25,457 nt of DNA from an uncultured archaeon (GCA_964525635.1 CAZGJX010000021.1:1-25457); one strand, 5' to 3'. Shown: positions 2,324 to 21,316, numbered from the stretch's first letter. Notes: generated by a model from the letters alone, not told the origin. Program-made: numbers and translations.

Positions 2324-4366
2324 CTATTGTATATTCTTAGCGAATGCCAAAAATCTTTGATATAAATCATCTGAATTAGCAATAATTCCAATTTTTTTTG
2401 AATGAAATTTGAAATTTCTCCTCCCAATTGGCGCCAAAATCCTGTAATTCGACATATATATCAAATTCTTTGCAGAAATTATCGTATTTAGTTTAAGATT
2501 TTTCTCGATTTCAGAATAATTTAAATTATCGGAAATTTTTTTCATATTATCTAATTTTATTTTACCTAGATCCCATGAATTAGATATATCATTAAGATCA
2601 GGAGTAATTAAAATGATTGAAAGCGAGGGTATATTTGCTAGAAATGAAGCTAAAACATTACCAACTCGTTTATCATTTAGATCATCTGTAATTATATGAA
2701 ATTGATCCTTATTTTCATCCATCATATCGAATAAAATATCTTCATGTTCAAAATTGTAAATTAAAGATATAGTAAAATAGTTATTTATTGATATGAGATA
2801 TTCTTTCAAAAGTCTTATTAGTTTTAGAGCATCTTCTATTTCACTATTTAATAAATAGTAATCCAGCATTTCTACTGATTTTTTTAATCGTAATACCAAT
2901 TTTTTTCGATTCGGGTTCAGTTCTTTAAAATAAATGGAATGGGCAACTTTCAGATATTTTTCCAATTCTTTTTTAAGCTCTAATGAATCTGGTAAGTAAT
3001 CGATAACAAATTGGGAGAAATCAACCGGACTACTTCCGCCCTCAATATATAACGTAGGAATAAGATCACTTTCATTATAATAATCATTACCAAAAAAGGA
3101 CATATTATTATAGAAAATTTTATTAAAATCTATAATGATAAAATTACTATCTATTTTTGTACTTGCTAAAGTAAAAACTACTCTTTTTTCATCAATCCTG
3201 TCTAAATTCTTTAACAATTCTTTTTTAAAATCTGAAAATTTTTTCTTTTTCTCTATATTTGGTATATCTTCAATTAGTCCCCAAATTAAAAATATTTTTA
3301 CGTTATTTTTTTTAGATTCTTTAATTATATTTTGAAGGAAATGGATATTATTTATATTCAATATATCTGAACAAATTAAAATATAGCTCGTAGATAATTT
3401 AGCGCATTTTAAAATTTCTTTTATTACTTCTGAGTTTTTAATAAAAAAATTGATTGAATTCACACTTTCTATGCGAGTAATTATATCATTAGCCTTATAA
3501 TTAAGAGTTTCAAGTTCATCTTCGAAAGAAAATAAATATTTTGCATTTTCTTTTTTATTTTGGATAATTGATTGAATTGAATCCAGTCTTTTATTTATAT
3601 CCTTAATTAGTTTATTATTAGTAATAATTCTTGGACTTCTAATGAATTTTGATAGATCTATTTCCTTTTCATCATTAAATTGTGAATTATATGCATTTTG
3701 CCAAGATTTCTGGACTGAAAGTGGAAAAACATCATAATCCAAATCAAAAAATTTATTTTCTTCCTTTGGAAGATAAATATACATTGAATCTCGATGAATA
3801 GGGTATAAAAAATTGATCTTTTCAACATCTTCAAAATCAGATTGAATCTTAGGACGAATACATTTTGTATATTTATTCAGAGAATAGTTTTTTAAATCTT
3901 GAAATGATTCAGACGGAGAAGCTTTTAGATTTATATAATTAGTTGTTTCTTTAGGGGGATTTCTTAAATAATCTTTAACAATATCTTCAATAAAAATCTC
4001 GCCACCTATTTTCTCTTGAATTATAGTCACAGGAAATTTGCTAACATTAGCTTCCACATTTAAATATTCATCAAGCCTATTATTTTCTACATAATCAAAA
4101 ATCTCATCACTAAGAGTGACAACGCCTCGATTTAAATCTAAGTTAATCAATTCTGCATAAAACATTTGAGCAAGAATATAATTCATGATATGAGCACCTA
4201 CATTAAAAGCTTTTAGTAAATTTACTAAAGAATTATCAATATAGATAAATTTCAAGATAAAGATTTCAAAATTCGATAATCTTCTGCTTTTTCTTATTAC
4301 AATTTCGCATTTTTCCATACGTATAGGTATTACTAAATAATTATTCATTTCTTCTATATTTTCCAA
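2324..4366 (-). CDS. mkoB: Mokosh type I MkoB-like protein: N-terminal wHTH-like region plus two PLD-fold domains with degenerate HKD motifs
   Basis: PLD-type strands YILICSDIL...KNNVKIFLIWG...KIDSNFIIIDFNKIFYNNMSF and FHIITDDL...LSIILITP...LNTIISAKNLIYMSNY. TTG start lies 1 nt after the kinase-helicase stop, with SD AGGTGA at 4376-4381. Name rests on layout and context. Confidence 0.65.
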   Translation of the reverse strand: MENIEEMNNYLVIPIRMEKCEIVIRKSRRLSNFEIFILKFIYIDNSLVNLLKAFNVGAHIMNYILAQMFYAELINLDLNRGVVTLSDEIFDYVENNRLDEYLNVEANVSKFPVTIIQEKIGGEIFIEDIVKDYLRNPPKETTNYINLKASPSESFQDLKNYSLNKYTKCIRPKIQSDFEDVEKINFLYPIHRDSMYIYLPKEENKFFDLDYDVFPLSVQKSWQNAYNSQFNDEKEIDLSKFIRSPRIITNNKLIKDINKRLDSIQSIIQNKKENAKYLFSFEDELETLNYKANDIITRIESVNSINFFIKNSEVIKEILKCAKLSTSYILICSDILNINNIHFLQNIIKESKKNNVKIFLIWGLIEDIPNIEKKKKFSDFKKELLKNLDRIDEKRVVFTLASTKIDSNFIIIDFNKIFYNNMSFFGNDYYNESDLIPTLYIEGGSSPVDFSQFVIDYLPDSLELKKELEKYLKVAHSIYFKELNPNRKKLVLRLKKSVEMLDYYLLNSEIEDALKLIRLLKEYLISINNYFTISLIYNFEHEDILFDMMDENKDQFHIITDDLNDKRVGNVLASFLANIPSLSIILITPDLNDISNSWDLGKIKLDNMKKISDNLNYSEIEKNLKLNTIISAKNLIYMSNYRILAPIGRRNFKFHSKKIGIIANSDDLYQRFLAFAKNIQ

Positions 4367-4367
4367 T

Positions 4368-7300
4368 TTAGTTATTCACCTGATCAAAATCAATTAATTT
4401 ACCATTCTCTCTAATAAATTCTGCAAATTTAACAAACTTGTCCATATAAGGATTTTTTTTATGATTAAGAACCATATCATAATTTCCAATAATAATTTCT
4501 ATTTTCTTGGCTCTTGAGAGCATAACATTTAATCTTTCTGAATCTAGAACAAAACCCCATGCGAGTTGTGCAATTTCTTTAGAATTACTTCTTACTAATG
4601 AAATAATAACTAGCTCGGCTTCTTGTCCTTGAAATCTATCAATAGTATAGCAAGATTCTTTAATATTTATTTCTGGTAGATTTTCGATTTTATTTGGGAG
4701 AATGATTTTCAATTTTTCCATTTGTTCCTTATAAGGTGTTAAAATCGCTATTTTAAAATCTGTATATTTTTTAGATATTTTAAATAATTTTAATAAATCT
4801 AGAATAAGCTTAGCCTCCCCTAAATTAAAAATATCAGTGCCCTTTCTTTCTTCATTAAATCTTCTATTTCTCTTTGTATTTATCCAAATTAACTGTTCAT
4901 TTTTAAATATACTTGGTTCTACTATAAAATCATCACTATCTAAAATCTTTTGATTAAATTCTTCTTCATAAAAAACACTTGAAATCATTTTACTAATTTT
5001 AGAAGGTAATCGATATTGGTCCATTAGTGTATCACATGATTTTCTTTTATCTGATGATTTATAAGATGGACTTATACTTTTAAATCTATTAAACATTGAT
5101 TGGAATATTTTTAATTCACTTAATACAAGTTTCTTAAAATTAAAATGTTCAGTTATATTAAATTCGTTATTATCTTTATTTTCTTGTTCAATCAAATCCA
5201 GCTTTTCATTTAAAATTCTTTCAATATCATTTAGACGGAAAGGAGGCAATTGATTCTGATCTCCAATTAAAATCCATTTATTTCCTAATTGTAATGGACG
5301 AAATAATTCTGAAGGATAAGTTTTTCCTGCTTCTTCAACAATTACTAAATCAAAATTTGGTGATGTGAACTCTAATTCTCTTAAATCATGTGCGGTACTG
5401 GTGCAAAAGATTAAATTAGCACTTTCCCTAATAATATCTACCCATTCTCTACTGGGTGCTATTATTTCTTCCTTTAATATTTCAGATATCGATATTTTAA
5501 GTTCATTATACTTCTCATTTTCAGGATTCCAATTTAATATATCATTTAGCATTTTAATTGTCATTTGTTTTGGAAAATGTTTAAAAGGTGTTGAATTTGG
5601 GGTATAATCCTTCTCTCTATCGGTACTAATTAGACGTACTAATATTGGTCTTGGATAAATTTCTAATTTTTGCGACATCTTAAATGTTTTATAAAGTAAA
5701 TCATCTAAAGCCGCATGCTCCTTACTTGATATTAAAATTCTTTTAAAAGGATCTTTACTAAGACTTAATTTTATCAGTTCCTTTGCGGTCCATGTTTTTC
5801 CGGTGCCTGGTGGACCTTGTAAAATAAAAATTGGAAATGTATAAAAAATAAATTTTACTATATCATTCTCTTTTTCTCCAAGAAAATATTGATGTGAGAC
5901 CGCGGGATTTAAGATGGCATCAATTAAATAAGAATATTGCTCAAGATTCTGGATTATTATATATTTCCTTCTTAATAGAAATAGTGTGGATCTTAAATCC
6001 CAAAATCTTAAAAATCCACTTAATGGAGGATCTTCATTTTTTCTAAGTTCCTGCAATTTAATAATGGTATTAGTATTATCTTTTTCATCAACTGTTTCAA
6101 TTATTTTCCACTTTCTCTTTCGTTTGAATTTCTCTCTTAATTCTGGATTATTAACCAATTCTACTGTTTTATGTTGGGAATTTCTTAATACATCTAAAAA
6201 AGATGTATACTCCGAATTATTATAGATATTGATAATGATAAATCTCTTTTGATCCTTTTGAACTTCAATATCTTTAGAGTCTTCTATAATCTCATATTCA
6301 AAAATATTTCTTTTTTCTATTTCTTCTTCCGCTTCAGTAATAAGTTTTAAAGCATTTAACCAATCAAGTTTTTCACGCTCATATTCAGAAGGTTTGAGAT
6401 CTAAAGTTCTTATTTGAGATAATGATTCTGCAAATTTTTGTTCCCAAACTCCAAAAGCTCGTTCTCTATTATCTAACCAATAAAATTCTCCTACCCCTAA
6501 TACTTTATGATCTGTCAAAAAGAAATCCCTTTCTTCTCTTTTATGAAGAATTGCTATTTCTGCAAGATTTCTATTATTATGAGCTCTCCTAAATTTATAT
6601 TTCGCATTTTTTCCAATAGTCCATAATGGCCACTGTCTATTATCTGTTAAAAATAAAGTACAATTGTGTAATTCATTAATAAGAAATTCATTAGGATCAT
6701 CCCTTAATCCTTGTATGTTAATATCGATTCTTCTTGCTATACTTCTTAAAAAAGAGCTATTAATATCTCTATGGAAATATATTGGCATTCTTGAATTAAA
6801 AGAAAATTTATAATTTATTTGCTTAACAAATTCTCTTATTGCTTGTGTAAGATCTTCAGTACTCTCATATCTATGTTCTGGATCAATTTCAATAGCTTTT
6901 AAGATAATCTTTTTTTCTTCTTCAATTCCTTCTGTAAATTGGATTTTTTCTCTTATGGATTCATATAGTTCAATTCTTTCAGTTAAATCAGATTTTAAAA
7001 AGATATCAATATTATCAAAGTCATAAACTAGAAATGCTAATACCAAACCAAAAGAAAAAATATCTGATCTAAAGGTTTCAATATCAAGACATTCAGGTGC
7101 TCTAAAAAAATGAAGATTATTTTGGATTATTTCCCGCGAAATTTCATTAGAGACAAAATTTGATATTGAAAAAAGGTATATACTCCAATTAAAATCACCT
7201 AGCTTGAGAAAATGGCTTTCACCTTCTCTGAAAGCATTTCCATTGAAATATACAGTATCTAATGATATATTCCTATGCAATAATCCTGCATTATGCAAGC

Positions 7301-7769
7301 ATCCTAAGCCTTCCGATAATTTTAAAATTCCCTCCCATATTTTTTTTTTTGAGAATTCTGCACTCCTTAATTTAAGAATAGAACTTACATCTTCATCATT
7401 ATCTTCAGTTAATAATAAATTTTTAAGACATCTACCTCCAGATTCAGTAACTAGAATAAAACATTTTTCTTCAGGATCATAGGCTCCATCAATTAATTTA
7501 ATAAGAGTTTTGCCTTCAAATATATTGAGTGCTCTTTGATTGAGAGAAATTTCATAATGCCAAAGATATTGAGCTAAATCTTGCATTTCTGGTTCTTCAT
7601 TAACAAATATTTTTTTAAGAATCACTTCTTGGTTAAATATAGTATCTTTGGCCTTATATTGTTTAATCTCAACCTTCCCAGCAAAAGGAATTACTCTATG
7701 GTCCGTTAATTCTTTTAAATCTTTATATCTAGATTTCCAAGTATCAAATTTATCTGACATTATCATCAA
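4368..7769 (-). CDS. mkoA: Mokosh type I MkoA-like Ser/Thr (pseudo)kinase fused to a UPF1/DNA2-like SF1B helicase (AAA_11/AAA_12)
   Basis: Kinase motifs: VILKK, LLHRNIS, LKLGDFNWS, FRAPE, SDIFSFG, PEHR. Helicase motifs: ILQGPPGTGKT, ILISSKEHAALD, LVIVEEAGK, LIGDQNQLPP, QYRL, AILTPYKEQ, TIDRFQGQEAELVIISLVRSN, RLNVMLSRAK. Confidence 0.88.
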   Translation of the reverse strand: MMIMSDKFDTWKSRYKDLKELTDHRVIPFAGKVEIKQYKAKDTIFNQEVILKKIFVNEEPEMQDLAQYLWHYEISLNQRALNIFEGKTLIKLIDGAYDPEEKCFILVTESGGRCLKNLLLTEDNDEDVSSILKLRSAEFSKKKIWEGILKLSEGLGCLHNAGLLHRNISLDTVYFNGNAFREGESHFLKLGDFNWSIYLFSISNFVSNEISREIIQNNLHFFRAPECLDIETFRSDIFSFGLVLAFLVYDFDNIDIFLKSDLTERIELYESIREKIQFTEGIEEEKKIILKAIEIDPEHRYESTEDLTQAIREFVKQINYKFSFNSRMPIYFHRDINSSFLRSIARRIDINIQGLRDDPNEFLINELHNCTLFLTDNRQWPLWTIGKNAKYKFRRAHNNRNLAEIAILHKREERDFFLTDHKVLGVGEFYWLDNRERAFGVWEQKFAESLSQIRTLDLKPSEYEREKLDWLNALKLITEAEEEIEKRNIFEYEIIEDSKDIEVQKDQKRFIIINIYNNSEYTSFLDVLRNSQHKTVELVNNPELREKFKRKRKWKIIETVDEKDNTNTIIKLQELRKNEDPPLSGFLRFWDLRSTLFLLRRKYIIIQNLEQYSYLIDAILNPAVSHQYFLGEKENDIVKFIFYTFPIFILQGPPGTGKTWTAKELIKLSLSKDPFKRILISSKEHAALDDLLYKTFKMSQKLEIYPRPILVRLISTDREKDYTPNSTPFKHFPKQMTIKMLNDILNWNPENEKYNELKISISEILKEEIIAPSREWVDIIRESANLIFCTSTAHDLRELEFTSPNFDLVIVEEAGKTYPSELFRPLQLGNKWILIGDQNQLPPFRLNDIERILNEKLDLIEQENKDNNEFNITEHFNFKKLVLSELKIFQSMFNRFKSISPSYKSSDKRKSCDTLMDQYRLPSKISKMISSVFYEEEFNQKILDSDDFIVEPSIFKNEQLIWINTKRNRRFNEERKGTDIFNLGEAKLILDLLKLFKISKKYTDFKIAILTPYKEQMEKLKIILPNKIENLPEINIKESCYTIDRFQGQEAELVIISLVRSNSKEIAQLAWGFVLDSERLNVMLSRAKKIEIIIGNYDMVLNHKKNPYMDKFVKFAEFIRENGKLIDFDQVNN

Positions 7770-7879: not shown

Positions 7880-7889
7880 AAAAAAAAAA
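7880..7889 (-). terminator. Putative archaeal oligo-T terminator after the nuclease-HerA gene
   Basis: A10 on the plus strand, i.e. T10 on the minus strand, 13 nt downstream of the stop at 7903. Confidence 0.45.
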
Positions 7890-7902: not shown

Positions 7903-10227
7903 TTAATTAAGATAGGGAAACCTAATAATTACTGGTTGATGTTTTCCTTTACTCATGATAAACGCTTCTCCAGTTGAAAAATCCTTTAGTTGACGCCTTT
8001 CTTCCTTATCTAAATACTCTTTCAGTAAATAATTTGTCTGCCCCTGAATTTGAAAGAATACTTTAATATTACAGAGATCAATAATCTCTTTACTGATATC
8101 TAAGGGGCTATGAGTAGCAAATATCACTCCATAATTCCTTTTACGCCCTCTGTGAACGATCTCATCGAGAAATCCCATTATCCTTTTTTGATATTCAGAA
8201 TCGGCATTTGATTTTGATTTGGGTAATAGTCTCTGAATCTCATCCAGCACCAAAAGAAGTTTGAGGTTTTGTTCACTCTTCAAGGCAATTTTATGTAAGA
8301 GGGCAAGTAAATACAAACCAACAATTCTCTGATGTATATCACGTAGATTGTGAGTATCAATAATAATAACTTTTTTAGTTAAGAAATGTGAAATGATATC
8401 AATTGATTCATATTCAGGAATGTCAAAAATTTTTAATGCTATTGAATTCAATGCCCTGCAAATAGCCATCTTTGTCACACTTGCTAATGTATAGTTCTCA
8501 TGATTTGCATATTCAATTATTTTACTTCGTAATACTGGAAAAGTGAACTCCATACCTTTATTTTCCTCAACAATATCATACAAGATAGTACTCAAAGAAT
8601 CATGGGTAATTGGAGTTAATTCTCTTAATAAAAAGGGAAAATCTAACGGATCAATTGCATTAAGAGAAAGGCAGGTTCTATCCTCTGAATCTAAGGTTAT
8701 GATCCCTACTTGGTCAGTATCAAGTGATTTTAAATTCAATTTCTCCATTAGACCTCTTGATATATCCGTAGTTGGTATATCTATGATATTTCTGTATTCT
8801 CCTTCATTATCAAGGATAATAACTTTAGGGGAATTATCTTTTTGATTGATTTTTAGGGTAAGGAATTTTAAGGCAGAAGTCTTTCCAGTACCCTGTACTC
8901 CGCCTATGAACATGCTTTGATATAATAGTCTTTGATCGAGATGATATGGATATTGCTCGCCTTTTTCAGCGATATTTCCAATTACAGTCCCATTTAAGGG
9001 GAGATTTTTAAATTGGAAAAACTCGATCTGCGTTGGGATTTTGATTTTTCCGCCGATTATTGTTTGAGGTCGAAGCTCCTGATAGCCTTTTGGATTAAAT
9101 TCTCCAACAGGATTTAATTTTATATTATAATGTTCCTCTTTGTGGGTTTTAGTTATTGTTGAGGCGCTCTCTTCTAAACAGTCTATTTTTTCCACAATGC
9201 ACATAATTCTAACACCATCCTCTTTCTCGACGATTACGCAATGCCCATCCTTTACTAAGGAAGCTTTTGAAGGGTATAAATACCCCTTAAGTTTGTTTTC
9301 TTTTCCCTTTATTAATTGAAGTGGTTTTCCAGGGATTGTATTTATCCATCCAAGGCAATCATTTTCATCATTGAGATCCTCGATTATATCTTTAGGTATA
9401 AGATTCTCTCCTTTTTTAATCAGAGATTCTGATCCATTGATAGTATATTCTTCTTCTGATATAGGTAATACCTCAGTATCTACATCAAAATCAAGACTCA
9501 CATCTTCATATCCTTCAAACGCAGTATCCTTCGCAAATTCTATTGCCTTTTTCCTTAACTCTTCAGTAAACTCATATTTAATTACTTTATTGGGAAAGTA
9601 GACAAGCTGTATTGATTTACATTTTTGATTTCTCGCTTCTTCAAATATTATTGCATATAAACATAACTGCATGAAATTACGATGGTCTTTTGATTCAGAA
9701 TCAAGGGGATCAATATTTAACTCATATTCATAGGATTTAAAATCTTGAGCAATAAAATGATTTGAATTGATTTCTATTAAATTATCAATCCTTCCATTAA
9801 CTTTTATTCCGCCTATTCTCCCCTCACCCTTATATTCAAGACTTGGCTCTCCTCCGAAGAAATCTGTCTCAATTTCTCTTGGGATGATGATTCCATAATT
9901 TTGCTTCGAATGCTGTTTTGCTATATGCAGTATCTCTTTTTTTAGAATATTAAGTAGAATTTTAGCATCTTCATGGTAAAGAATATACTGATCACTTATA
10001 CGGATATTCGAAAGTTTATCATTAACAGCTTTGGTGACTCTCTGGCTAAATATCCTGATATTTGTTTTATTTGAACGATCTGAAGTCTTGAAGACTTGGT
10101 TTAAGAATTGTGATCTTGATTCATGGAGAACAATACCGCGTTCCCCTTCATTATGTAGCATTATCTTCCCATATTTTTTATTAAGAAGATTGCTAACTGT
10201 GGGCTTTTTATATTTTATATAATTCAA
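7903..10227 (-). CDS. RecB/Cas4-like PD-(D/E)xK nuclease fused to a HAS-barrel-like region and HerA/DUF87 (FtsK-HerA) ATPase
   Basis: Nuclease motifs: ERGIVLHE, REIE, VNGRIDNL, AQDFKS, MQLCLYA. ATPase motifs: SMFIGGVQGTGKT, VIILDNEGEY, LLVLDEIQRL, HRGRKRNYGVIFATHSP, TGEAF. Start reassigned to TTG 10227 because SD AGGTGA (10236-10241) lies 8 nt upstream; the track start is 10260. Confidence 0.88.
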   Translation of the reverse strand: MNYIKYKKPTVSNLLNKKYGKIMLHNEGERGIVLHESRSQFLNQVFKTSDRSNKTNIRIFSQRVTKAVNDKLSNIRISDQYILYHEDAKILLNILKKEILHIAKQHSKQNYGIIIPREIETDFFGGEPSLEYKGEGRIGGIKVNGRIDNLIEINSNHFIAQDFKSYEYELNIDPLDSESKDHRNFMQLCLYAIIFEEARNQKCKSIQLVYFPNKVIKYEFTEELRKKAIEFAKDTAFEGYEDVSLDFDVDTEVLPISEEEYTINGSESLIKKGENLIPKDIIEDLNDENDCLGWINTIPGKPLQLIKGKENKLKGYLYPSKASLVKDGHCVIVEKEDGVRIMCIVEKIDCLEESASTITKTHKEEHYNIKLNPVGEFNPKGYQELRPQTIIGGKIKIPTQIEFFQFKNLPLNGTVIGNIAEKGEQYPYHLDQRLLYQSMFIGGVQGTGKTSALKFLTLKINQKDNSPKVIILDNEGEYRNIIDIPTTDISRGLMEKLNLKSLDTDQVGIITLDSEDRTCLSLNAIDPLDFPFLLRELTPITHDSLSTILYDIVEENKGMEFTFPVLRSKIIEYANHENYTLASVTKMAICRALNSIALKIFDIPEYESIDIISHFLTKKVIIIDTHNLRDIHQRIVGLYLLALLHKIALKSEQNLKLLLVLDEIQRLLPKSKSNADSEYQKRIMGFLDEIVHRGRKRNYGVIFATHSPLDISKEIIDLCNIKVFFQIQGQTNYLLKEYLDKEERRQLKDFSTGEAFIMSKGKHQPVIIRFPYLN

Positions 10228-10246
10228 TTTTTTTTTCACCTTTTTT

Positions 10247-10825
10247 TTAATATAAATCAAATTCTCCTTTTGTATGCTCTATTCTTTTTAATACATCTAA
10301 AGTAGAGATCTGAGAATCTATTTTTTCAAATTGATTTATTTTTTCTTTATTCTCTGGGAAATTAGGAACATTGCTATATTCTATATTTGGACTTAGGCAT
10401 ATCTCATCATTAATAAGAAGAAATGAAATTCGTCTATCCTCAATCCATCTTTTATTTGGTAGTTGCTCTATATATTCTCTAAACTTATCATTTGAAATAA
10501 TTAAGCAAAAATCATACTTTAGAGCATAACTAAGAATAAACTCATCAGCAACTTTCGGAGCTTCAATTAAAATGCCTTCTTTTTTTAGAACTTTATACTC
10601 TAATGGTTTATCGATTCTATATTTTAAAGCGGGATCGCAAATACAAATAATATCTTTCTTTTTAAAATGTAATTTTTCTTTTAAAAGTTCATACACTAAT
10701 AAAATATCAGAAAGACTTGGTGGTTTTAATTTATTATTTCTTGAATAGGCTATATTATTACAATCCAAAATAATTTTAATATTCTTAATCCGTGTCAATC
10801 TTTCTATAATCGGTTCTAAACACAT
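10247..10825 (-). CDS. NYN/PIN-fold ribonuclease, Zc3h12a (Regnase)-like
   Basis: Acidic motif set KIILDCNNIAY, ICDPALKYRID, KVADEFILSYA, IISNDKFREY is typical of RNase_Zc3h12a/NYN domains. Confidence 0.85.
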   Translation of the reverse strand: MCLEPIIERLTRIKNIKIILDCNNIAYSRNNKLKPPSLSDILLVYELLKEKLHFKKKDIICICDPALKYRIDKPLEYKVLKKEGILIEAPKVADEFILSYALKYDFCLIISNDKFREYIEQLPNKRWIEDRRISFLLINDEICLSPNIEYSNVPNFPENKEKINQFEKIDSQISTLDVLKRIEHTKGEFDLY

Positions 10826-10885
10826 TTTTTAAAATACCTATCTTTTATTATAATAGAAGAATTCCAACTATTTTATTCAATTGTA

Positions 10886-10922
10886 TGGGACAAAGTACGG
10901 AATTTGGGACAATCTTTATAAA
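10886..10922. promoter_or_regulatory. Divergent promoter region: TGGGACAA direct repeat and TATA box
   Basis: TGGGACAA at 10886-10893 and 10905-10912, TTTATAAA at 10915-10922, and SD GGTGA at 10951-10955 before ATG 10965. Confidence 0.5.
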
Positions 10923-10964
10923 TATTATCAATTATTGTTTTTATATAGTTGGTGATAAAAAATT

Positions 10965-13900
10965 ATGCCATATCCAGATGATTTAAAACCAAGGAGATAT
11001 GAATATAACATTTTAAGAACTTTAGAATTTAATCCAGAGGGATTTATATTTGAAAAGCGAGATTTCAATAAAATGTATATGGAAAAAACTGCATTTTATG
11101 ATTATAGAAAAAAGCTCGAAAATAATGGTTATATTCAGAAAATTAATACGCCGAGAGAAAATAGACAAGGAGAAATAGGTAGGAAGAAAACATATTTTAT
11201 TACAGATAAAGGAATACAAAGATTAAAAGATTTAAAAAGTATAAGGAAAGATATACAATTTCCTCCTAATAATTTAGAATTAAATAATGAGGAAAGAATT
11301 CTTTGGATGCTTGCAAATAATACTTTTTGCAGGGCAAGAGATTTTAAAAATAGAAATTGTGGAATTCGATCATCTTCATTTTATAGTAATGTTGATAGAT
11401 TATTGAATAGACAATATATAGTGAGGGACAATATATCAGAGATCAGTCATTCTGTCTATAAAATTACCGATAAAGGTAGAGAAAAATATTTAAGTATTTT
11501 AAAGGAAAAAGGGCGAGATCCAAAGATAATTCATGAAGAAAAGATTAATATTTTATCAAAAATGAATCAATCAAATCAAATTTTTTTCAATAAATACAAT
11601 ATTGAGAAATCAAATATAAGATATCGTTTTAATAATTATAAGATTATTTTTAGTTATTCTTCCTATAAAGATATCTTTGGAAATAATGAAAATAACTATA
11701 ATCTATTTTTATTATATCTTGTATTAAATCATCCTGATAATTATCCAATTTGCATAAATGAGGAAAATTTTTGTAAAAAATATGGATTAGATATTGTAAA
11801 TCTTAAATATTATATACATCAGATATTTAAAGAGGCAAAATCTATAATAAAGATTTTTAGAATTAAGATAGAAGAAGGTAATTGTATTTATTATTTTCAT
11901 GAAAAAGATTTAATCTACAAAATGATGAAAATTATTATTGAGGAGTATTTTGAATCAAAATTTATACGAATGTTAGATCTAAAATCTAAAAAATCTGTTG
12001 ATAAAAAAGTATCAAATATCTATAATAGAAATTATTTTTCTATAAATGATGAAGATTTATATGATATAGCTTCGCAAATTTGTGAAAATTATAGTATTTT
12101 AGATAATAATTTTCAATATATACTTACAGAATTCTTAGAAGATTTTATAAAACACTTGGAATATAAATTTGAAGAAGAATATGAATCCTTTGATAGATAT
12201 AGATATAATCAAAAGAGTGTTACATCATTCGATATCTATAATATGTTCTCTAAAATGGAAGAGATTTCCCAAAAACCTGTAAAAAAGATCAATATTACCG
12301 AAGATAAATCTACCAATATTTTATATGAAATCATTGATGATAAAAAATTAAATTTTTTAAATCATATCCTAAAAAGAACAGAAACATTAACTAGCGAACA
12401 TAATTTTAGAGAAGCATTGAAAACTATAAATACTGGATTAGATGAAATTAAAAAAATAGATTTACAATTAAGAAATGAGGAAGATGGAAAATTAAATAAT
12501 AATTATTATTATTTCCGCATTCAATTTTTCTCAAAAAAAGTCGATATCTTATTTGAATTAAAGGAATTTAATAAAATAGCCAGTCTTATGAAAGATATTG
12601 ATAGTATAACATTAATTGATGTGATAGTATCAAGATTAATAGATATAGAGGAGATATCGTATGCTAAAAAAGTATTTGATAATGTTTTTTCAGATCCTCC
12701 TGAAAATATATCAAAGGAAGATTTAGATGAATTTTATTCAGAATGTTATTTTCAAATAGAAGCAAATTTTCATAATGAAATATTAGATTTATATAGAAAT
12801 AATGAAAATGAAAGAGCAATAATGATTGCAGATAAATTCTTGAAATTTAATCCACATGCGAAAGACATTTTAAAAATTAAAGCTTTTGCTCTTGCTGAAT
12901 TAAAAAAATATAGAGAAGCATTAGAAGTAATTAATAAGGCTATTAAACTAAGTCCTAAAGGATTAAGAATATTAGGTAAAAATTGGTTAGAAGAATTCTC
13001 TGAAGAAAAGAAATCTAAAAAGCGAATAAAAAGTTATGAAGACTCAAATTATCAATATGATTATTATATATCAAAAATACGACTTCTGATGAAAATGCAA
13101 AATTATAAAGAATCAAAAACTTTATTAAATCGAATAATAAATCTTAATCCAAGAGTATCAGAAGCACATTTTCTACTTTCAATCATTAATGCATATGTAG
13201 ATAATAATTATAAACAAGCCCTTGTATATGTAGAAAATGCAATTAAACATAGTAATGGTATTAATCATAAATATCATGGTCAAAAGGCTAATTATCTGTT
13301 AACATTGAATAGACCTAAAGAAGCTTTAGAGACAATAAATCAATTTGAGCAAAAATATTCAATGGATCTAAAAGAATTCTTATCTACCAAATGTGAAGCA
13401 TTGGAAAGAGTAGGGAAATATAAGGAAGCTTTAATTGTTGTTAATGATTTAATTAAGAAAAATAATAAAAAACCATGGAATTATTATAAAAAAGCATTTA
13501 TTCTCAATAAAATGGGAGAGAATTCTGAAGCATTAAAAAATATCAATAAAGCGCTTAAGATTAAGCCAAAAAAATTCGTATATCTACAAGATAAGATTGG
13601 TATATTAGAAGATTTGGGAAGAATTGATGATGCCCTTAAACTTATTGATATAGAAGAGTCAGTTCTTACCAGCCATGCAAATCAATTTAGAGCACAATTA
13701 TATCCAAAGAAGGCAATTCAATTAGCAAATTCTGGTAACAAGAAAGAAGCAATAGATACAATAGAAAAATCAATAAAAATTGATCCTGAAGAAGCAAATT
13801 ATTTCAATACGTATGGAGAGATTTATATGAAATTTGAAGAATATAAAAAAGCAATTGAGAAGCTAGAGATTGCAATAAAACTTCACTTTACACCAACTGA

Positions 13901-14117
13901 AGCTTATATAAACTTAGGTATATGTTATTATCAAATTAAAAATTATGAGAATGCTTTAGAATTCTTGAGAAGAGGAAGGAATTTAGCTACACATTCTTTT
14001 GATAGATTAAAAAAAAATAAAAATATTAAATTAACACAAGAAGACTATCTCCAAGAAGAATTAATTAAAGAAGCAGATAATTATATTTTAAAAATTCAAA
14101 AAGTAATAGAAAAATAA
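10965..14117 (+). CDS. Tandem winged-helix (PadR/MarR-like) plus TPR-repeat protein
   Basis: Two wHTH wing motifs (KLENNGYI...TYFITDKGIQRL and RLLNRQYI...VYKITDKGREKY). The C-terminal half has many TPRs (KAFALAELKKYREALEVINKAIKLSP, YFNTYGEIYMKFEEYKKAIEKL, AYINLGICYYQIKNYENAL). Confidence 0.85.
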   Translation: MPYPDDLKPRRYEYNILRTLEFNPEGFIFEKRDFNKMYMEKTAFYDYRKKLENNGYIQKINTPRENRQGEIGRKKTYFITDKGIQRLKDLKSIRKDIQFPPNNLELNNEERILWMLANNTFCRARDFKNRNCGIRSSSFYSNVDRLLNRQYIVRDNISEISHSVYKITDKGREKYLSILKEKGRDPKIIHEEKINILSKMNQSNQIFFNKYNIEKSNIRYRFNNYKIIFSYSSYKDIFGNNENNYNLFLLYLVLNHPDNYPICINEENFCKKYGLDIVNLKYYIHQIFKEAKSIIKIFRIKIEEGNCIYYFHEKDLIYKMMKIIIEEYFESKFIRMLDLKSKKSVDKKVSNIYNRNYFSINDEDLYDIASQICENYSILDNNFQYILTEFLEDFIKHLEYKFEEEYESFDRYRYNQKSVTSFDIYNMFSKMEEISQKPVKKINITEDKSTNILYEIIDDKKLNFLNHILKRTETLTSEHNFREALKTINTGLDEIKKIDLQLRNEEDGKLNNNYYYFRIQFFSKKVDILFELKEFNKIASLMKDIDSITLIDVIVSRLIDIEEISYAKKVFDNVFSDPPENISKEDLDEFYSECYFQIEANFHNEILDLYRNNENERAIMIADKFLKFNPHAKDILKIKAFALAELKKYREALEVINKAIKLSPKGLRILGKNWLEEFSEEKKSKKRIKSYEDSNYQYDYYISKIRLLMKMQNYKESKTLLNRIINLNPRVSEAHFLLSIINAYVDNNYKQALVYVENAIKHSNGINHKYHGQKANYLLTLNRPKEALETINQFEQKYSMDLKEFLSTKCEALERVGKYKEALIVVNDLIKKNNKKPWNYYKKAFILNKMGENSEALKNINKALKIKPKKFVYLQDKIGILEDLGRIDDALKLIDIEESVLTSHANQFRAQLYPKKAIQLANSGNKKEAIDTIEKSIKIDPEEANYFNTYGEIYMKFEEYKKAIEKLEIAIKLHFTPTEAYINLGICYYQIKNYENALEFLRRGRNLATHSFDRLKKNKNIKLTQEDYLQEELIKEADNYILKIQKVIEK

Positions 14118-17368: not shown

Positions 17369-18121
17369 ATGGTATTTGACTCAGGTTTAAGGGAGTTTAA
17401 AAAGAAGGAAAGCATCCCAATCATCCCAACTGGAGATGAGACACTCAACAGGCTCCTGCTCGGCGGATTTCACATGGATCTCCTTTATTTACTCTACGGA
17501 GACAGGCGCATCACGACCAATATCTTGCTGAAAACTGCTGTAAATTCCCAGATAATTCTCAGCAAAAATGGAATATCTAACTGTTCTATTAAAATTGCTT
17601 ATATCGATGGAATCAACCGCTTCAATCCCTATAACATCTCTAAGTATGCCTTAAGCCTCAAGCTAAATCCACGAATCGTTCTGGAAAATATCTTAATATC
17701 GAGGGTATTTACCTGGGATCAGATGGTTGAGGTGCTTGAAAACCAAATCATTAAATTAAACTCAATAAATGTGGTAATGATTTCAGGGATAACGCAGTTA
17801 TTTGAGTATGAGACGGAGAGATATGAAGGACTATGGAAGGCAATTGGCGGAATCAAACAATTATTGGCAAAATTAAATCCCTTAATTGTTTTAACTGCCC
17901 CTCAAAATCGATTCTCCGATTTCAAGCCAAAAGGCGGGCAAGTCATCACCCATTTTGGAAATGTGTTGGTGTGTATTGATAATTTGGAAAGAGTGATAAA
18001 ATACAGCCTCGTTCAGCATCCATCAATGCCTGAAATGACCTTAACACAAATGAAACTATATGAATCAAAGAGAAGGAAACCAAAATCAATTAAGAATGAG
18101 AGAATTGATAAATGGCTGTAA
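17369..18121 (+). CDS. Inactivated RadA/Rad51-like (RecA-fold) protein with C-terminal PIP-like box
   Basis: RadA-like segments IPTGDETLNRLLLGG, IAYIDGINRFNP, ILISRVFTWDQM and PKGGQVITH. Walker A is replaced by YGDRRITT and Walker B by VVMISG. The protein ends NERIDKWL. Confidence 0.8.
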   Translation: MVFDSGLREFKKKESIPIIPTGDETLNRLLLGGFHMDLLYLLYGDRRITTNILLKTAVNSQIILSKNGISNCSIKIAYIDGINRFNPYNISKYALSLKLNPRIVLENILISRVFTWDQMVEVLENQIIKLNSINVVMISGITQLFEYETERYEGLWKAIGGIKQLLAKLNPLIVLTAPQNRFSDFKPKGGQVITHFGNVLVCIDNLERVIKYSLVQHPSMPEMTLTQMKLYESKRRKPKSIKNERIDKWL

Positions 18122-18752: not shown

Positions 18753-19925
18753 GTGATAAAGATGATTTATCATCCTTTTATAGACTTTAATTGTAATTTA
18801 TGCAATTCCTCAAATATAATAGAAACTTCTCAAGGATATGTCTGTATAGATTGCGGATTAGTCTTAGAGATTCAAAAAATCGTATATCATCGACCATATA
18901 ATATTGAAAAATTACAAAACAAGCCAAATCTAACCAGTACAAGAATCGGTACCATTTCAGAATTAAAGAATAAGGGATATCCTTCTAATTTGACAAGACT
19001 TAAAATACTTAATAGATATAAAACCAATGAACAAGCAATCTACAGTAAAGCGAAAGCTGAAATATATCGAATTTTAACATCATTAGGGCTCAAAAATATC
19101 CTAAAAAACGATATTTTTATCCGATTCAAATCTATTTATGAACAATTACAACCGCAGTCGAAATTTAGGAATCCTGAGAAATTAATTCCCTGTATCATCT
19201 ATTTATTTTGCAAAGAAGACTCCATAATTATAGATGAAGGAGCTCTATTGGAGATCTCAAAAATCACAAAAAAGGAATTTAATGCCTTTAGACTTCAATA
19301 TAATCAATTCTTTCCGAAGCGGACTGACCGAGATCGTATAAGATACATTTTAAATCAGATATTTCAGATATTTGAAATGAATGCTCTACCAATATCGTTT
19401 TATTATGAATCGAGAAAGATTCTAATTAAACTCTGGAAGTTAATTAAGAATACAACTGATCGCATAATTGCTGGAGTTGTTAGTTCTATAACTAGTCTCT
19501 GTTATTATCCAGAGCAGGTTAGTGTGTCTACAATATGTAAGCACCTTCACATCTCCATTTGTAATGTTCAATATCAGGTAAAGATTAATATTTTCCAGAG
19601 ATTAAAACTATCGGGATTTACCACTTTGAAAAAATCCGTATCTATATTAAGAAAAATCACTAAAAAGTTGCTCTCTATCCCTAAGAAAAAGAAAAGAAAG
19701 AAAATCTCAATTCCAATAAGACAAGTAAAGATCCATCAACATATCAAAATTATAAAATTCTTGTTTCAAATAAATAGAAAAACTGAAAAAAGATTCTTGC
19801 ATCATCAATTTATCATTTTATTTAATGTATCTCATAAAAAGATTTTTATCTGTCTTTATTATCCTAAAATCAAGTTAAGGGCAGGAGAAATCTTTTTTAT
19901 AGGAAAAGGTCCGCCTAAAAAGTAG
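18753..19925 (+). CDS. tfb: Divergent transcription initiation factor IIB (TFB)-like protein
   Basis: Zn ribbon CNLC...YVCIDCG, then two cyclin-fold repeats (KAEIYRILTSLGL...LIPCIIYLFC and IIAGVVSSITSL...VSTICKHL). Basic tail ends GKGPPKK. The start could instead be ATG 18762. Confidence 0.8.
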   Translation: MIKMIYHPFIDFNCNLCNSSNIIETSQGYVCIDCGLVLEIQKIVYHRPYNIEKLQNKPNLTSTRIGTISELKNKGYPSNLTRLKILNRYKTNEQAIYSKAKAEIYRILTSLGLKNILKNDIFIRFKSIYEQLQPQSKFRNPEKLIPCIIYLFCKEDSIIIDEGALLEISKITKKEFNAFRLQYNQFFPKRTDRDRIRYILNQIFQIFEMNALPISFYYESRKILIKLWKLIKNTTDRIIAGVVSSITSLCYYPEQVSVSTICKHLHISICNVQYQVKINIFQRLKLSGFTTLKKSVSILRKITKKLLSIPKKKKRKKISIPIRQVKIHQHIKIIKFLFQINRKTEKRFLHHQFIILFNVSHKKIFICLYYPKIKLRAGEIFFIGKGPPKK

Positions 19926-20137: not shown

Positions 20138-21316
20138 TTATTTACCTCTCTCTAATTCAATCTGTCTTGCTTTAATAATTCTTTTAAAAGTCGGATTTTT
20201 CATAAGCACTTTATTATACCATTCAAGAGCCTCTTGATGCTTTTTATTATACCCCAATATCTCTCCTTTAATTAACAAATATTCCTCATTATCTGGATCC
20301 AACTTTAATGCTTTATCTAAACACTCAATACCTTCTTTACATTTCTTAAAAGTCTGTCCTAATATTAAACCTTTCATCTTCCATGCTTCTGGTGATTTTG
20401 GATTATTTTTTAGAACTTTATCAAAATACTCTATAGCTTTTTCAAGTTGACCTATCCTAGCATAACCTTTTCCAAGATCAGTCATTAGATTCAAATTATT
20501 AGGATTTTTTTTCAATAAATCTGTAATTTTTTCCACTTCTTCCTTATTTTTTCTTAAATGCTGTGTTAATTTGATTTTTACTTGTCTAGCCTGATTATCA
20601 TTTGGATTTAAGTTCAATATGGTATCATAATCTTTAATTGCTTCCTTAAACTTGCCCAATCTCGCATAACTAGCCCCTCTTCCATGATATATATTTGGTT
20701 CTTTAGGATCTAAATCCTTTGCTCTATTATAACATTCAATACCTTTTTCATATTCATGAAGATATCCTAAACAAGCTCCTTTATCAATCCAGCTTTTAAC
20801 AAAGTCTGGTTTTAATTCAAGTACTTTATCATAGCACTTGATTGCCTCTTCATATTGACCAAGAAATTGATGAGATACACCCTTATTACACCAAGATCTA
20901 AAATCCTCTGAAAACAAATCTATGGCTTTATCATAACACCCAATTGCCTTTGGATATATACCTAGATCAAAAAAATTATTTCCCTGATCATATAATTTTG
21001 AATATTCAACACTCATAGTAGTTAATTCTCTGAACTTTTTTTCATTAATTATTCCCTTTCCAAATTTTATAGGATCATAATCGGGAAGAGAACTTAACAA
21101 TCGCTCTAAATTTTGCTTAATTTTTGTCGAATTTGAGTATTTTGAGGCCTCATATAAACAATTGACAGCGTTTTTAAGATCTCCTTTAAGTTCGAAAACT
21201 TTTGCTTTATAATACAATGCTTCTGTGCTATTAGGATCAGTCTTTAAATATTTATTTATTTCATTCATTGCTTCTTCATGTTTTGATTTTTCAATTAATT
21301 GTCTAAATTCTTCCAT
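20138..21316 (-). CDS. Tetratricopeptide repeat protein
   Basis: Many canonical TPRs, e.g. WCNKGVSHQFLGQYEEAIKCYDKVLELKP and GKGYARIGQLEKAIEYFDKVLKNNP. Confidence 0.92.
   Translation of the reverse strand: MEEFRQLIEKSKHEEAMNEINKYLKTDPNSTEALYYKAKVFELKGDLKNAVNCLYEASKYSNSTKIKQNLERLLSSLPDYDPIKFGKGIINEKKFRELTTMSVEYSKLYDQGNNFFDLGIYPKAIGCYDKAIDLFSEDFRSWCNKGVSHQFLGQYEEAIKCYDKVLELKPDFVKSWIDKGACLGYLHEYEKGIECYNRAKDLDPKEPNIYHGRGASYARLGKFKEAIKDYDTILNLNPNDNQARQVKIKLTQHLRKNKEEVEKITDLLKKNPNNLNLMTDLGKGYARIGQLEKAIEYFDKVLKNNPKSPEAWKMKGLILGQTFKKCKEGIECLDKALKLDPDNEEYLLIKGEILGYNKKHQEALEWYNKVLMKNPTFKRIIKARQIELERGK

Follow-up and report, generated by a model that had tools for sequence, protein, structure and literature searches.

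In both repair and immunity, HerA rings that carry an effector (NurA, Sir2 or DUF4297) are emerging as a theme. A stretch of 25,457 nucleotides (nt) from an uncultured archaeon (GCA_964525635.1 CAZGJX010000021.1:1-25457), referred to here in its full length as the window, encodes such a motor with a nuclease in cis. On the minus strand, between positions 7903 and 10825, a gene for an NYN-domain protein is directly followed by a gene in which a Cas4/RecB-like nuclease is fused to a HerA ATPase, and a preliminary description had taken the pair for a new two-gene defence module. Overall, we lean towards the view that the locus represents an accessory, horizontally exchanged conflict module, probably antiviral or anti-plasmid, of Lokiarchaeia-type Asgard archaea, for which we propose a mechanism. 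The observations behind this view are the domain identities and intact motifs of the two proteins, their family-wide conservation and gene order, a patchy distribution, selection at the peptide level on a C-terminal tail of the upstream protein and surroundings rich in defence genes.

Architecture of the nuclease-HerA fusion

The fusion gene (7903-10227, minus strand) encodes 774 amino acids (aa) from its likeliest start codon, and its open reading frame (ORF) stays open up to 10260 (785 aa). The encoded protein begins with an N-terminal helical region and a Cas4/RecB-like PD-(D/E)xK core (9517-10149, minus; aa 38-248 of P0002). A variable, acidic and disordered linker of ~50 aa (9361-9516, minus; aa 249-300) separates the nuclease from the HerA part, which consists of a HAS-barrel-like beta domain (9001-9360, minus; aa ~301-420) and a RecA-like HerA/FtsK ATPase core (7906-9000, minus; aa 421-785; Pfam DUF87 and AAA). 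The motifs that had been noticed at the outset are all present, namely GxxxH (G42xxxH46), GRID (D159), DFKS (K175) and QLxxYA (QLCLYA; Q198, Y202) in the nuclease and the signatures of a HerA ATPase behind it. In an alignment of 26 homologues, the nuclease residues E142, D159, K175, Q198 and Y202 are invariant, as are the Walker A GTGKT at 8878-8886 and the Walker B DE at 8239-8244; an HRGRKRxYG motif in the ATPase core is likewise invariant among the aligned homologues.

Profile and structure comparisons agree on the ATPase. PADLOC models of HerA (5.8e-19) and, on the ATPase part, of mad8 (3.8e-18) match the fusion, and the Pfam family DUF87 (PF01935) is found at 36.6 bits against a cut-off of 23.2. 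Models of the fusion and of the NYN protein were built with AlphaFold2 (AF2) as single chains. The C-terminal ~570 aa of the fusion model (predicted local distance difference test, pLDDT, 80.8) match solved HerA hexamers in Foldseek at E values of 1e-22 to 1e-17, with the HerA of a HerA-NurA complex (9x1m) as the best match (1.3e-22) and further matches to HerA chains of an anti-phage complex (8xav), of DUF4297-HerA (8zit/9c1n) and of SIR2-HerA (8wod/8sub/8j4u). The Foldseek probability is 1.0 for many HerA chains, and template modelling scores, normalized to the target, are 0.5-0.62 over about 520-610 columns. The region at aa ~301-420 is all-beta in the model and lies inside the span matched to the solved chains, and the linker at aa 249-300 has a pLDDT of 22-35 and varies in length and sequence among homologues. 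By fold, Walker motifs and above-cut-off score, the ATPase is a member of the HerA clade of the FtsK-HerA superfamily. CedD, TraD and TrwB were considered as identities and dropped, as their scores lie far below the cut-offs (CedD, 49.6 bits vs 600).

The nuclease is matched by the Cas4 model of PADLOC (3.5e-8) and by TIGR00372 (2.2e-6), and the best match of its profile in the PDB is Sso Cas4 (4ic1, 0.0045), with Exo5 also among the best. The TIGR00372 equivalog cut-off is not reached (27.6 bits vs 65). C200 and C214 are the only conserved cysteines of the domain, which therefore lacks the four-Cys Fe-S cluster, and no Cas families, and hence no linkage to cas1/cas2, were found among the window ORFs. 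Judged from its sequence, the nuclease is Cas4-like, not Cas4.

The upstream NYN protein and its alternatives

The gene ahead of the fusion (10247-10825, minus; 192 aa including a C-terminal tail) encodes a Zc3h12a/Regnase-like NYN nuclease domain (10388-10777, minus; aa 17-146), matched by RNase_Zc3h12a (PF11977) at 3.4e-9 and 37 bits vs a cut-off of 23. Its acidic motifs, described as intact-looking from the start, hold up across the family: D21, N24, D64, D94/E95 and S111-N112-D113 are invariant in 16 orthologues, and 75-81 of the 81 homologues have the acidic motifs of the active site. The AF2 model (core pLDDT 73-91) resembles MCPIP1/Regnase-1, ZC3H12B/C and KHNYN in Foldseek (Regnase-family chains at 23-25% identity; MCPIP1 3v34 at 1.1e-5), with T5 flap endonuclease as a weak structural match (E 0.013), and the family profile matched ZC3H12C/B/A and PRORP2 among solved structures. 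By score, predicted fold and acidic residues, the protein is assigned to the Zc3h12a-like NYN family.

The two genes are tightly spaced. As the preliminary description had it, the NYN stop codon (10249-10247, minus) precedes the likeliest fusion start, a TTG at 10227-10225 (minus), by 19 nt, and a Shine-Dalgarno-like AGGTGA (10241-10236, minus) stands before this TTG with a spacer of 8 nt. The TTG at 10227 best fits the N-termini of fusion homologues in the alignment; in-frame alternatives are a GTG at 10239, where the database entry P0003 (778 aa) starts, and a TTG at 10260. Across loci, the NYN and fusion genes are co-directional with a gap or overlap of -40 to +30 nt. The fusion has ~90 full-length homologues and the NYN protein has 81; the observation lies far beyond chance.

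The NYN gene is not obligatory. We read the upstream gene in every locus that holds the fusion N-terminus, which gave 35 main-clade loci with upstream DNA (same-genome duplicates removed, no further de-replication). A full NYN gene stands directly upstream and co-directional in 17 of these, an N-truncated one in two, and an unrelated domain of 111-144 aa, here called altB, in eight; another short protein occupies the place in one locus. Six loci have no upstream gene and 115-178 nt to the next, divergent gene, and in one locus an HTH-containing ORF of 398 aa stands there instead. The proposal of a two-gene module of NYN and fusion thus stands in that an NYN gene of any length lies upstream in 19/35 loci at tight spacing, and fails in that it is not an obligate one. 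In a maximum-likelihood (ML) tree of 32 fusions, NYN partners occur at scattered places in the main clade and the NYN-less state needs at least five changes, and altB forms one clade of five rows inside the main clade, with a distant sixth member in the outgroup. In two loci, ORFs of 398-424 aa with an ArsR/HTH_20 motif at the C-terminus occur, one of them (L037:2904-4178) inserted between the NYN gene and the fusion and the other (L034:4656-5852) standing where the NYN gene would be.

A C-terminal tail common to unrelated partners

All 28 upstream genes have the last ~19 aa in common, T-T-L-D-V-L-x-x-I-E-x-x-x-G-x-F/L-x-L-F/Y followed by the stop, and in 28/35 loci the tail-bearing gene ends -40 to +30 nt from the fusion start. 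In the window, this tail, a proposed docking peptide, is ISTLDVLKRIEHTKGEFDLY (10250-10309, minus; aa 173-192 of the NYN protein), which follows a variable linker. Comparison of the NYN and altB classes with hhalign aligns the tail alone (27 columns, 95% probability). A MAFFT alignment had hinted that altB might be a cut-down NYN; the profile-profile comparison aligns only the 27-residue tail region, and the bodies have no supported homology. Among the 81 NYN homologues in a large protein database, the tail is present in 77 and ends at most three residues from the C-terminus in 69. Tail-like ends also accompany fusions of only 26-27% identity, TWLDILYNSDNAGKSFKIY in locus L076 and NWLKILYHTEIKDKKIDFY in L092. 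The L076 partner (9366-9995), beside a 27%-identical fusion, is NYN-like and has lost several acidic residues while keeping its tail-like end. This degenerate sequence suggests a structural role that is independent of catalysis.

The tail is maintained as a peptide. Pairwise nucleotide identity within it is 0.66, 0.85 and 0.48 at codon positions 1, 2 and 3, and its invariant T and G are encoded by three to four synonymous codons. The peptide is retained although third codon positions change, which places selection on the amino-acid sequence and not on a signal in RNA or DNA. This free variation rules out that the tail is kept for nucleotide reasons such as translational coupling or a Shine-Dalgarno sequence. 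A hidden Markov model of the tail run against the six-frame translation of the 4.45-Mb genome from which the window comes gave one significant match (E 1.2e-10; next, 0.046), so a general hub-binding motif of the PCNA-box type was also dismissed. The NYN model renders the tail as a helix of low confidence (aa 175-184) that comes after a disordered linker of variable length.

Distribution of the family

Whole-genome searches located the fusion in 8 of 151 genomes of the same class (3 of 40 when only high-quality genomes are counted), in 6 of 301 of the same phylum and in none of three of the same genus; among 185,579 species genomes, there are only eight fusion loci. These figures rule out that the fusion is a core gene, and it is, as had been presumed, not a conserved single-copy gene of its lineage. 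Homologues are ~40-66% identical, and the named ones come nearly all from metagenome-assembled genomes (MAGs) of Promethearchaeota/Lokiarchaeota and from marine-sediment metagenomes. Two diverged copies, L004 and L011, occur in a single MAG.

The window's own genome contains seven DUF87-type genes. One is a canonical HerA of 525 aa that adjoins NurA on another contig (C25:27241-29304), and the housekeeping HerA-NurA pair therefore lies elsewhere. A second NurA of this genome is on contig C71. Family scans of the window found no NurA, Mre11 or Rad50, and together with the canonical pair on C25 this sustains the earlier argument that the fusion is not a housekeeping HerA.

No relatives were found in 2.9 million viral contigs and 50,697 phage records, collections that may hold few Asgard elements, nor, with the bacterial fusion P0123 as the query, in 72,556 plasmids, where Asgard elements may again be few. 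A profile search of 1.84 billion representative sequences returned 1281 matches, 77 of them at E<=1e-30, in which full-length fusions make up about ten representative clusters. Remoter relatives match from the HAS barrel onward, and many of them are ~500 aa long and have no N-terminal domain. Several remote relatives of 843-1027 aa again carry Cas_Cas4/PDDEXK_1 domains, and one remote fusion is annotated as a Dna2/Cas4 domain protein in a Pseudomonadota MAG. MFH1434507.1 is an example of a remote Cas4-HerA fusion that is bacterial. Going by these matches, the cis Cas4-HerA fusion is rare and, as far as found, unnamed, yet it is not confined to the module family.

Defence genes around the module

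Directly downstream of the module lies a Mokosh type I system, whose MkoA (4368-7769, minus; PADLOC 1.2e-162) is encoded by a kinase plus UPF1-like helicase gene and whose MkoB (2324-4366, minus; 7.9e-19) is represented by an MkoB-like gene of 680 aa. Mokosh is described as degrading viral transcripts (PMC11291487). ORFs were called and clustered for the 45 related loci that span 6 kb or more, and neighbours were annotated from this ORF calling and from family scans. The window MkoA and MkoB share a cluster with none of the genes from the other 44 mapped loci, and Mokosh is therefore a separate system; the idea that it forms one unit with the module was discarded.

In the other loci, about 10 of 99 non-redundant neighbours match PADLOC at E<=1e-10, an approximate raw tally; they include LmuA/B/C, UzuA, ThsA, PD-Lambda-4 and PDC-S35/S25/M50A. 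Related loci carry Lamassu, Uzume, Thoeris-like or BREX/Dpd-like genes, and Pfam adds Schlafen/AlbA_2, SIR2_2, CAP12-TIR and HNH proteins. Whether defence genes accompany homologues of the fusion had been posed as a question from the outset, and these neighbours, with Mokosh in the window, answer it in the affirmative.

Other features of the window are a fragment of a DDE_3 transposase at its edge (3-563, plus; 3.3e-35), which is consistent with a variable region, a Rad51/RadB-like ATPase (17369-18121; 8.9e-14), a TFIIB-zinc-ribbon protein (18753-19925), a TPR protein of 392 aa (20138-21316), small wHTH and zinc-ribbon genes, and a long ORF that has no Pfam match and runs off the end (22916-25456).

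Divergent genes and lineage-specific upstream modules

A T10 tract on the coding strand (A10 as shown; 7880-7889, minus), 14 nt past the fusion stop, closes the unit as first reported and is likely an archaeal oligo-T terminator. At the other end, the NYN gene shares an intergenic region of 139 nt (10826-10964) with a divergent gene, c1. This layout is conserved, and the region is presumed to hold the putative divergent promoters.

The list of parts given in the preliminary description, NYN protein and fusion, is correct as far as it goes; it missed both the conserved tail and c1 as a third partner. The c1 gene (10965-14117, plus) encodes a wHTH (PadR-like) and TPR protein of 1050 aa, in which Pfam places PadR at aa 37-88 and TPRs at ~600-1010; Protein Atlas scores for the middle region are all <=0.77. 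Its orthologues (650-1377 aa) lie directly upstream and divergent in 18 related loci, six of them without an intervening NYN gene, and have a conserved non-TPR N-terminal region and no Walker A motif. We propose that c1 may regulate the module or act as its sensor. Next to c1 there is often a second HerA-like ATPase (~650-945 aa; mad8, 1.3e-15; L015:2955-4928, L019:640-2586, L056:2230-5067 and L075:16650-18623), and a third HerA-like gene, c20 (~590 aa), recurs in L015, L019 and L024, with a partner gene of ~200 aa in some loci.

The divergent position can be filled differently. In four NYN loci (L035:1875-6140, L050:3141-6038, L013 and L037), c1 is replaced by a giant ATPase with SMC_N and DUF87 (HerA-like) domains, which PADLOC matches to mad3 (2.9e-26) and mad8 (2e-10). 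The altB clade has a conserved setting of its own, with DpdB-like (7e-29), BrxP-like PAPS reductase (2.4e-51), TGT-like, DUF5591, AAA and HATPase genes; in two outgroup loci, L076 and L083, whose fusions are 27-30% identical, the DpdB-like and BrxP-like genes are retained and accompanied by one for a PglZ protein. From its gene content, the altB island looks like an undescribed DNA-modification system of the BREX-type-4/Dpd-like kind that adopted the nuclease-HerA core. Within these islands (L014, L017, L020, L027, L032 and L063, with L076 and L083 in the outgroup), the PAPS reductase comes with 4Fe-4S, the TGT-like gene goes with DUF5591, and a 669-aa SMC/LmuB-like gene is flanked by two genes of ~150 aa, besides AAA and HATPase_c_3 genes.

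Proposed mechanism and alternative explanations

We provide a putative mechanism for the module. By analogy with solved HerA assemblies, the fusion would form a hexameric HerA ring, and double-stranded DNA pumped through the pore of this ring would reach six cis-tethered Cas4-like nuclease domains on the HAS side and be degraded there. One chain would thereby do what DUF4297-HerA and NurA-HerA do with two proteins. The upstream gene would supply an exchangeable partner, held to the ring by its ~19-aa tail, in which a short amphipathic helix would be followed by G-x-F/L-x-L-F/Y at the C-terminus. The NYN domain may add an optional second nuclease activity, directed at RNA or at single-stranded or flap DNA, and the wHTH+TPR protein would most likely act as a repressor or sensor that gates the expression or activation of the module. 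Hexamer formation, DNA degradation and the regulatory role of c1 are steps that we infer, the first of them by analogy.

Several points weigh against a conflict module that works in this way. The HerA and mad8 matches of PADLOC cover the ATPase only in part, and there is no match at the system level. Nor are the loci pure defence islands: they are variable regions with many defence genes, and MutS, enoyl-CoA hydratase, short-chain dehydrogenase, glycosyltransferase and Ras/Roc GTPases also occur among the neighbours. The five or more NYN-less changes could also mean that many loci are decaying, and the NYN substrate may be either RNA or DNA. Docking of the tail onto the fusion is deduced from co-occurrence, and the defence function of the module is argued by association only.

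The preliminary description had suggested that the module could couple DNA translocation and cleavage to RNA destruction, which would amount to an obligate two-gene abortive-infection system whose HerA-nuclease motor detects or cleaves invading DNA and whose NYN RNase destroys cellular or viral RNA. Such a system would account for the intact NYN active site (conserved in 75-81/81 homologues), for the tight coupling of the two genes and for the fact that the nearest solved relatives of the NYN protein, Regnase and KHNYN, are RNases; Mokosh, which is described as degrading viral transcripts (PMC11291487), also adjoins the module. We nevertheless regard it as unlikely. RNA destruction cannot be the core activity, because the NYN gene is not obligatory: at least five changes lead to its absence, and altB replaces it in one clade. 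Six loci keep c1 and the fusion only 115-178 nt apart and with no upstream gene, eight have an unrelated domain that shares only the tail, two NYN proteins are N-truncated, and the outgroup partner in L076 is without some acidic residues. Mokosh adjoins the module in the window only, and its genes cluster with nothing in the other 44 loci. Nothing speaks for cell suicide, and abortive infection is pure conjecture. The module might instead serve a mobile element, either as an ATPase-nuclease with which an integrated plasmid or virus processes, packages or transfers DNA or as a weapon between competing elements. HerA/FtsK ATPases also act in DNA transfer and packaging, the fusion has weak CedD, TraD and TrwB matches, the distribution is patchy with flanks that differ between loci, and the window holds the DDE transposase fragment (3-563) and small wHTH and zinc-ribbon genes. 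A function of this kind seems improbable to us, given that viral contigs, phage records and plasmids yielded no relatives (with possibly few Asgard elements among them), that the module has no recurrent neighbour of the integrase, replication, capsid or membrane-channel kind and that the CedD score of 49.6 bits falls so far short of the cut-off of 600.

Cas4, Exo5 and Dna2 nucleases act on DNA ends, and the best structural match of the ATPase is the HerA of the archaeal HerA-NurA resection complex. The fusion could therefore be a repair or recombination paralogue with NurA-HerA-like end resection, in which the Cas4-like domain and the NYN domain, with its PIN/FEN-like fold, each process one strand; the weak match of T5 flap endonuclease to the NYN model (E 0.013) points the same way. 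We think this very unlikely for a module that occurs in about 2-5% of related genomes and in 0/3 of the same genus, in a genome with a canonical HerA-NurA elsewhere. The two diverged copies in one MAG, the lack of linked mre11 or rad50 and the frequency of defence genes among the neighbours also speak against it. A last alternative concerns the tail alone, whose receptor might be the TPR array of c1 in place of the fusion, with c1 holding or sensing the NYN protein. TPR domains classically bind C-terminal peptides (Hsp70/90 EEVD, PTS1), and c1 is the commonest neighbour of NYN loci. We doubt this variant: one clade retains the tail although it has no c1 and no TPR gene lies within about 10 kb, six loci without a tail gene retain c1, and the SMC/HerA-type ATPase takes the place of c1 in four NYN loci. 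Because the tail persists with no TPR gene nearby and c1 without a tail gene, the fusion is the likelier tail receptor.

We therefore return to the accessory conflict module. Tentatively, and with less than even confidence, we suggest in addition that the nuclease-HerA ring is a hub that recruits interchangeable effector or adaptor domains (NYN, an unrelated helical domain) through the ~19-aa docking peptide and is wired to lineage-specific upstream modules (the wHTH+TPR sensor, the SMC/HerA-type ATPase or the BREX/Dpd-like set). The docking tail common to unrelated partners and the alternative upstream modules appear to be new features. To the known HerA rings with effectors, the family would add a form with a cis-fused nuclease, a short C-terminal peptide as a rule for recruiting partners across unrelated domains, and one motor-nuclease core combined with several sensing or modification modules. 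The defence repertoire of Asgard archaea is studied for its links to eukaryotic immunity, and the partner in this family is a nuclease domain of the Regnase/KHNYN type. Should the docking rule hold, searches with the tail could reveal further partners, and structural work could use it to assemble minimal complexes.

Comparison with known systems

No named PADLOC system matches the module, and full-text literature searches and term look-ups in papers on the Asgard defensome returned no description of the family. The claim that the layout is new among named systems holds to this extent; cis Cas4/PDDEXK-HerA fusions also occur in the remoter proteins, and the fusion as such is not unique to this layout. 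No adjacent separate DUF4297, Sir2 or NurA gene was found in the window. In its presumed mode of action, the family resembles the HerA-nuclease systems, without being a member of any of the named ones.

Dna2, like the fusion, is a Cas4-like nuclease joined to a motor. The Cas4/Exonuclease V/Dna2 family has the motif set E...D...D/ExK...QxxxY in common with the module nuclease, whereas the motor of the module is a HerA ring, not a superfamily 1 (SF1) helicase, the four-Cys Fe-S cluster is missing, and neither cas1 nor cas2 lies nearby. Regnase-1/MCPIP1, ZC3H12B/C and KHNYN share the fold and catalytic motifs of the module NYN protein; the latter has no CCCH zinc finger or KH domain, is archaeal and ends in the family-specific tail.

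Among the HerA systems, NurA-HerA provides the best structural match to the module ATPase (9x1m) and likewise couples a translocase to a nuclease that receives the DNA. In contrast to it, the module has no adjacent NurA, its nucleases have other folds, and it is not widespread but a patchy accessory. In SIR2-HerA (Nezha), the HerA hexamer is an effector platform, as in the module, but Nezha has an NADase in the role of effector, not a nuclease, and the module has no Sir2. MAD7 and MAD8 of MADS are described as an ATPase-nuclease module (PMC13662399), and the PADLOC mad8 model matches the ATPase part of the fusion (3.8e-18) and only that part. MADS is an eight-gene bacterial operon, whereas the window has no methyltransferase and no other mad gene.

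In DUF4297-HerA, layers of PD-(D/E)xK nuclease are stacked on the HAS side of a planar HerA hexamer to give one continuous channel, DNA is modelled as travelling in the direction of the nuclease, and both enzymes are reported to become active on assembly (PMC11291478). The module likewise combines a HerA-fold ATPase with a PD-(D/E)xK nuclease, and its fused N-terminal nuclease is attached on that same HAS side. The DUF4297-HerA partner, moreover, consists of a nuclease domain and a C-terminal HerA-binding part, as the NYN protein with its tail may do. The module differs in that its nuclease is Cas4-like, gives no DUF4297 match and is fused in cis, and in that its trans partner is an NYN or other domain with a ~19-aa tail in place of a folded C-terminal domain. 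It also adds a wHTH+TPR gene and is archaeal, and PADLOC HerA models of the DUF4297-HerA type match it weakly (3e-8 or worse).

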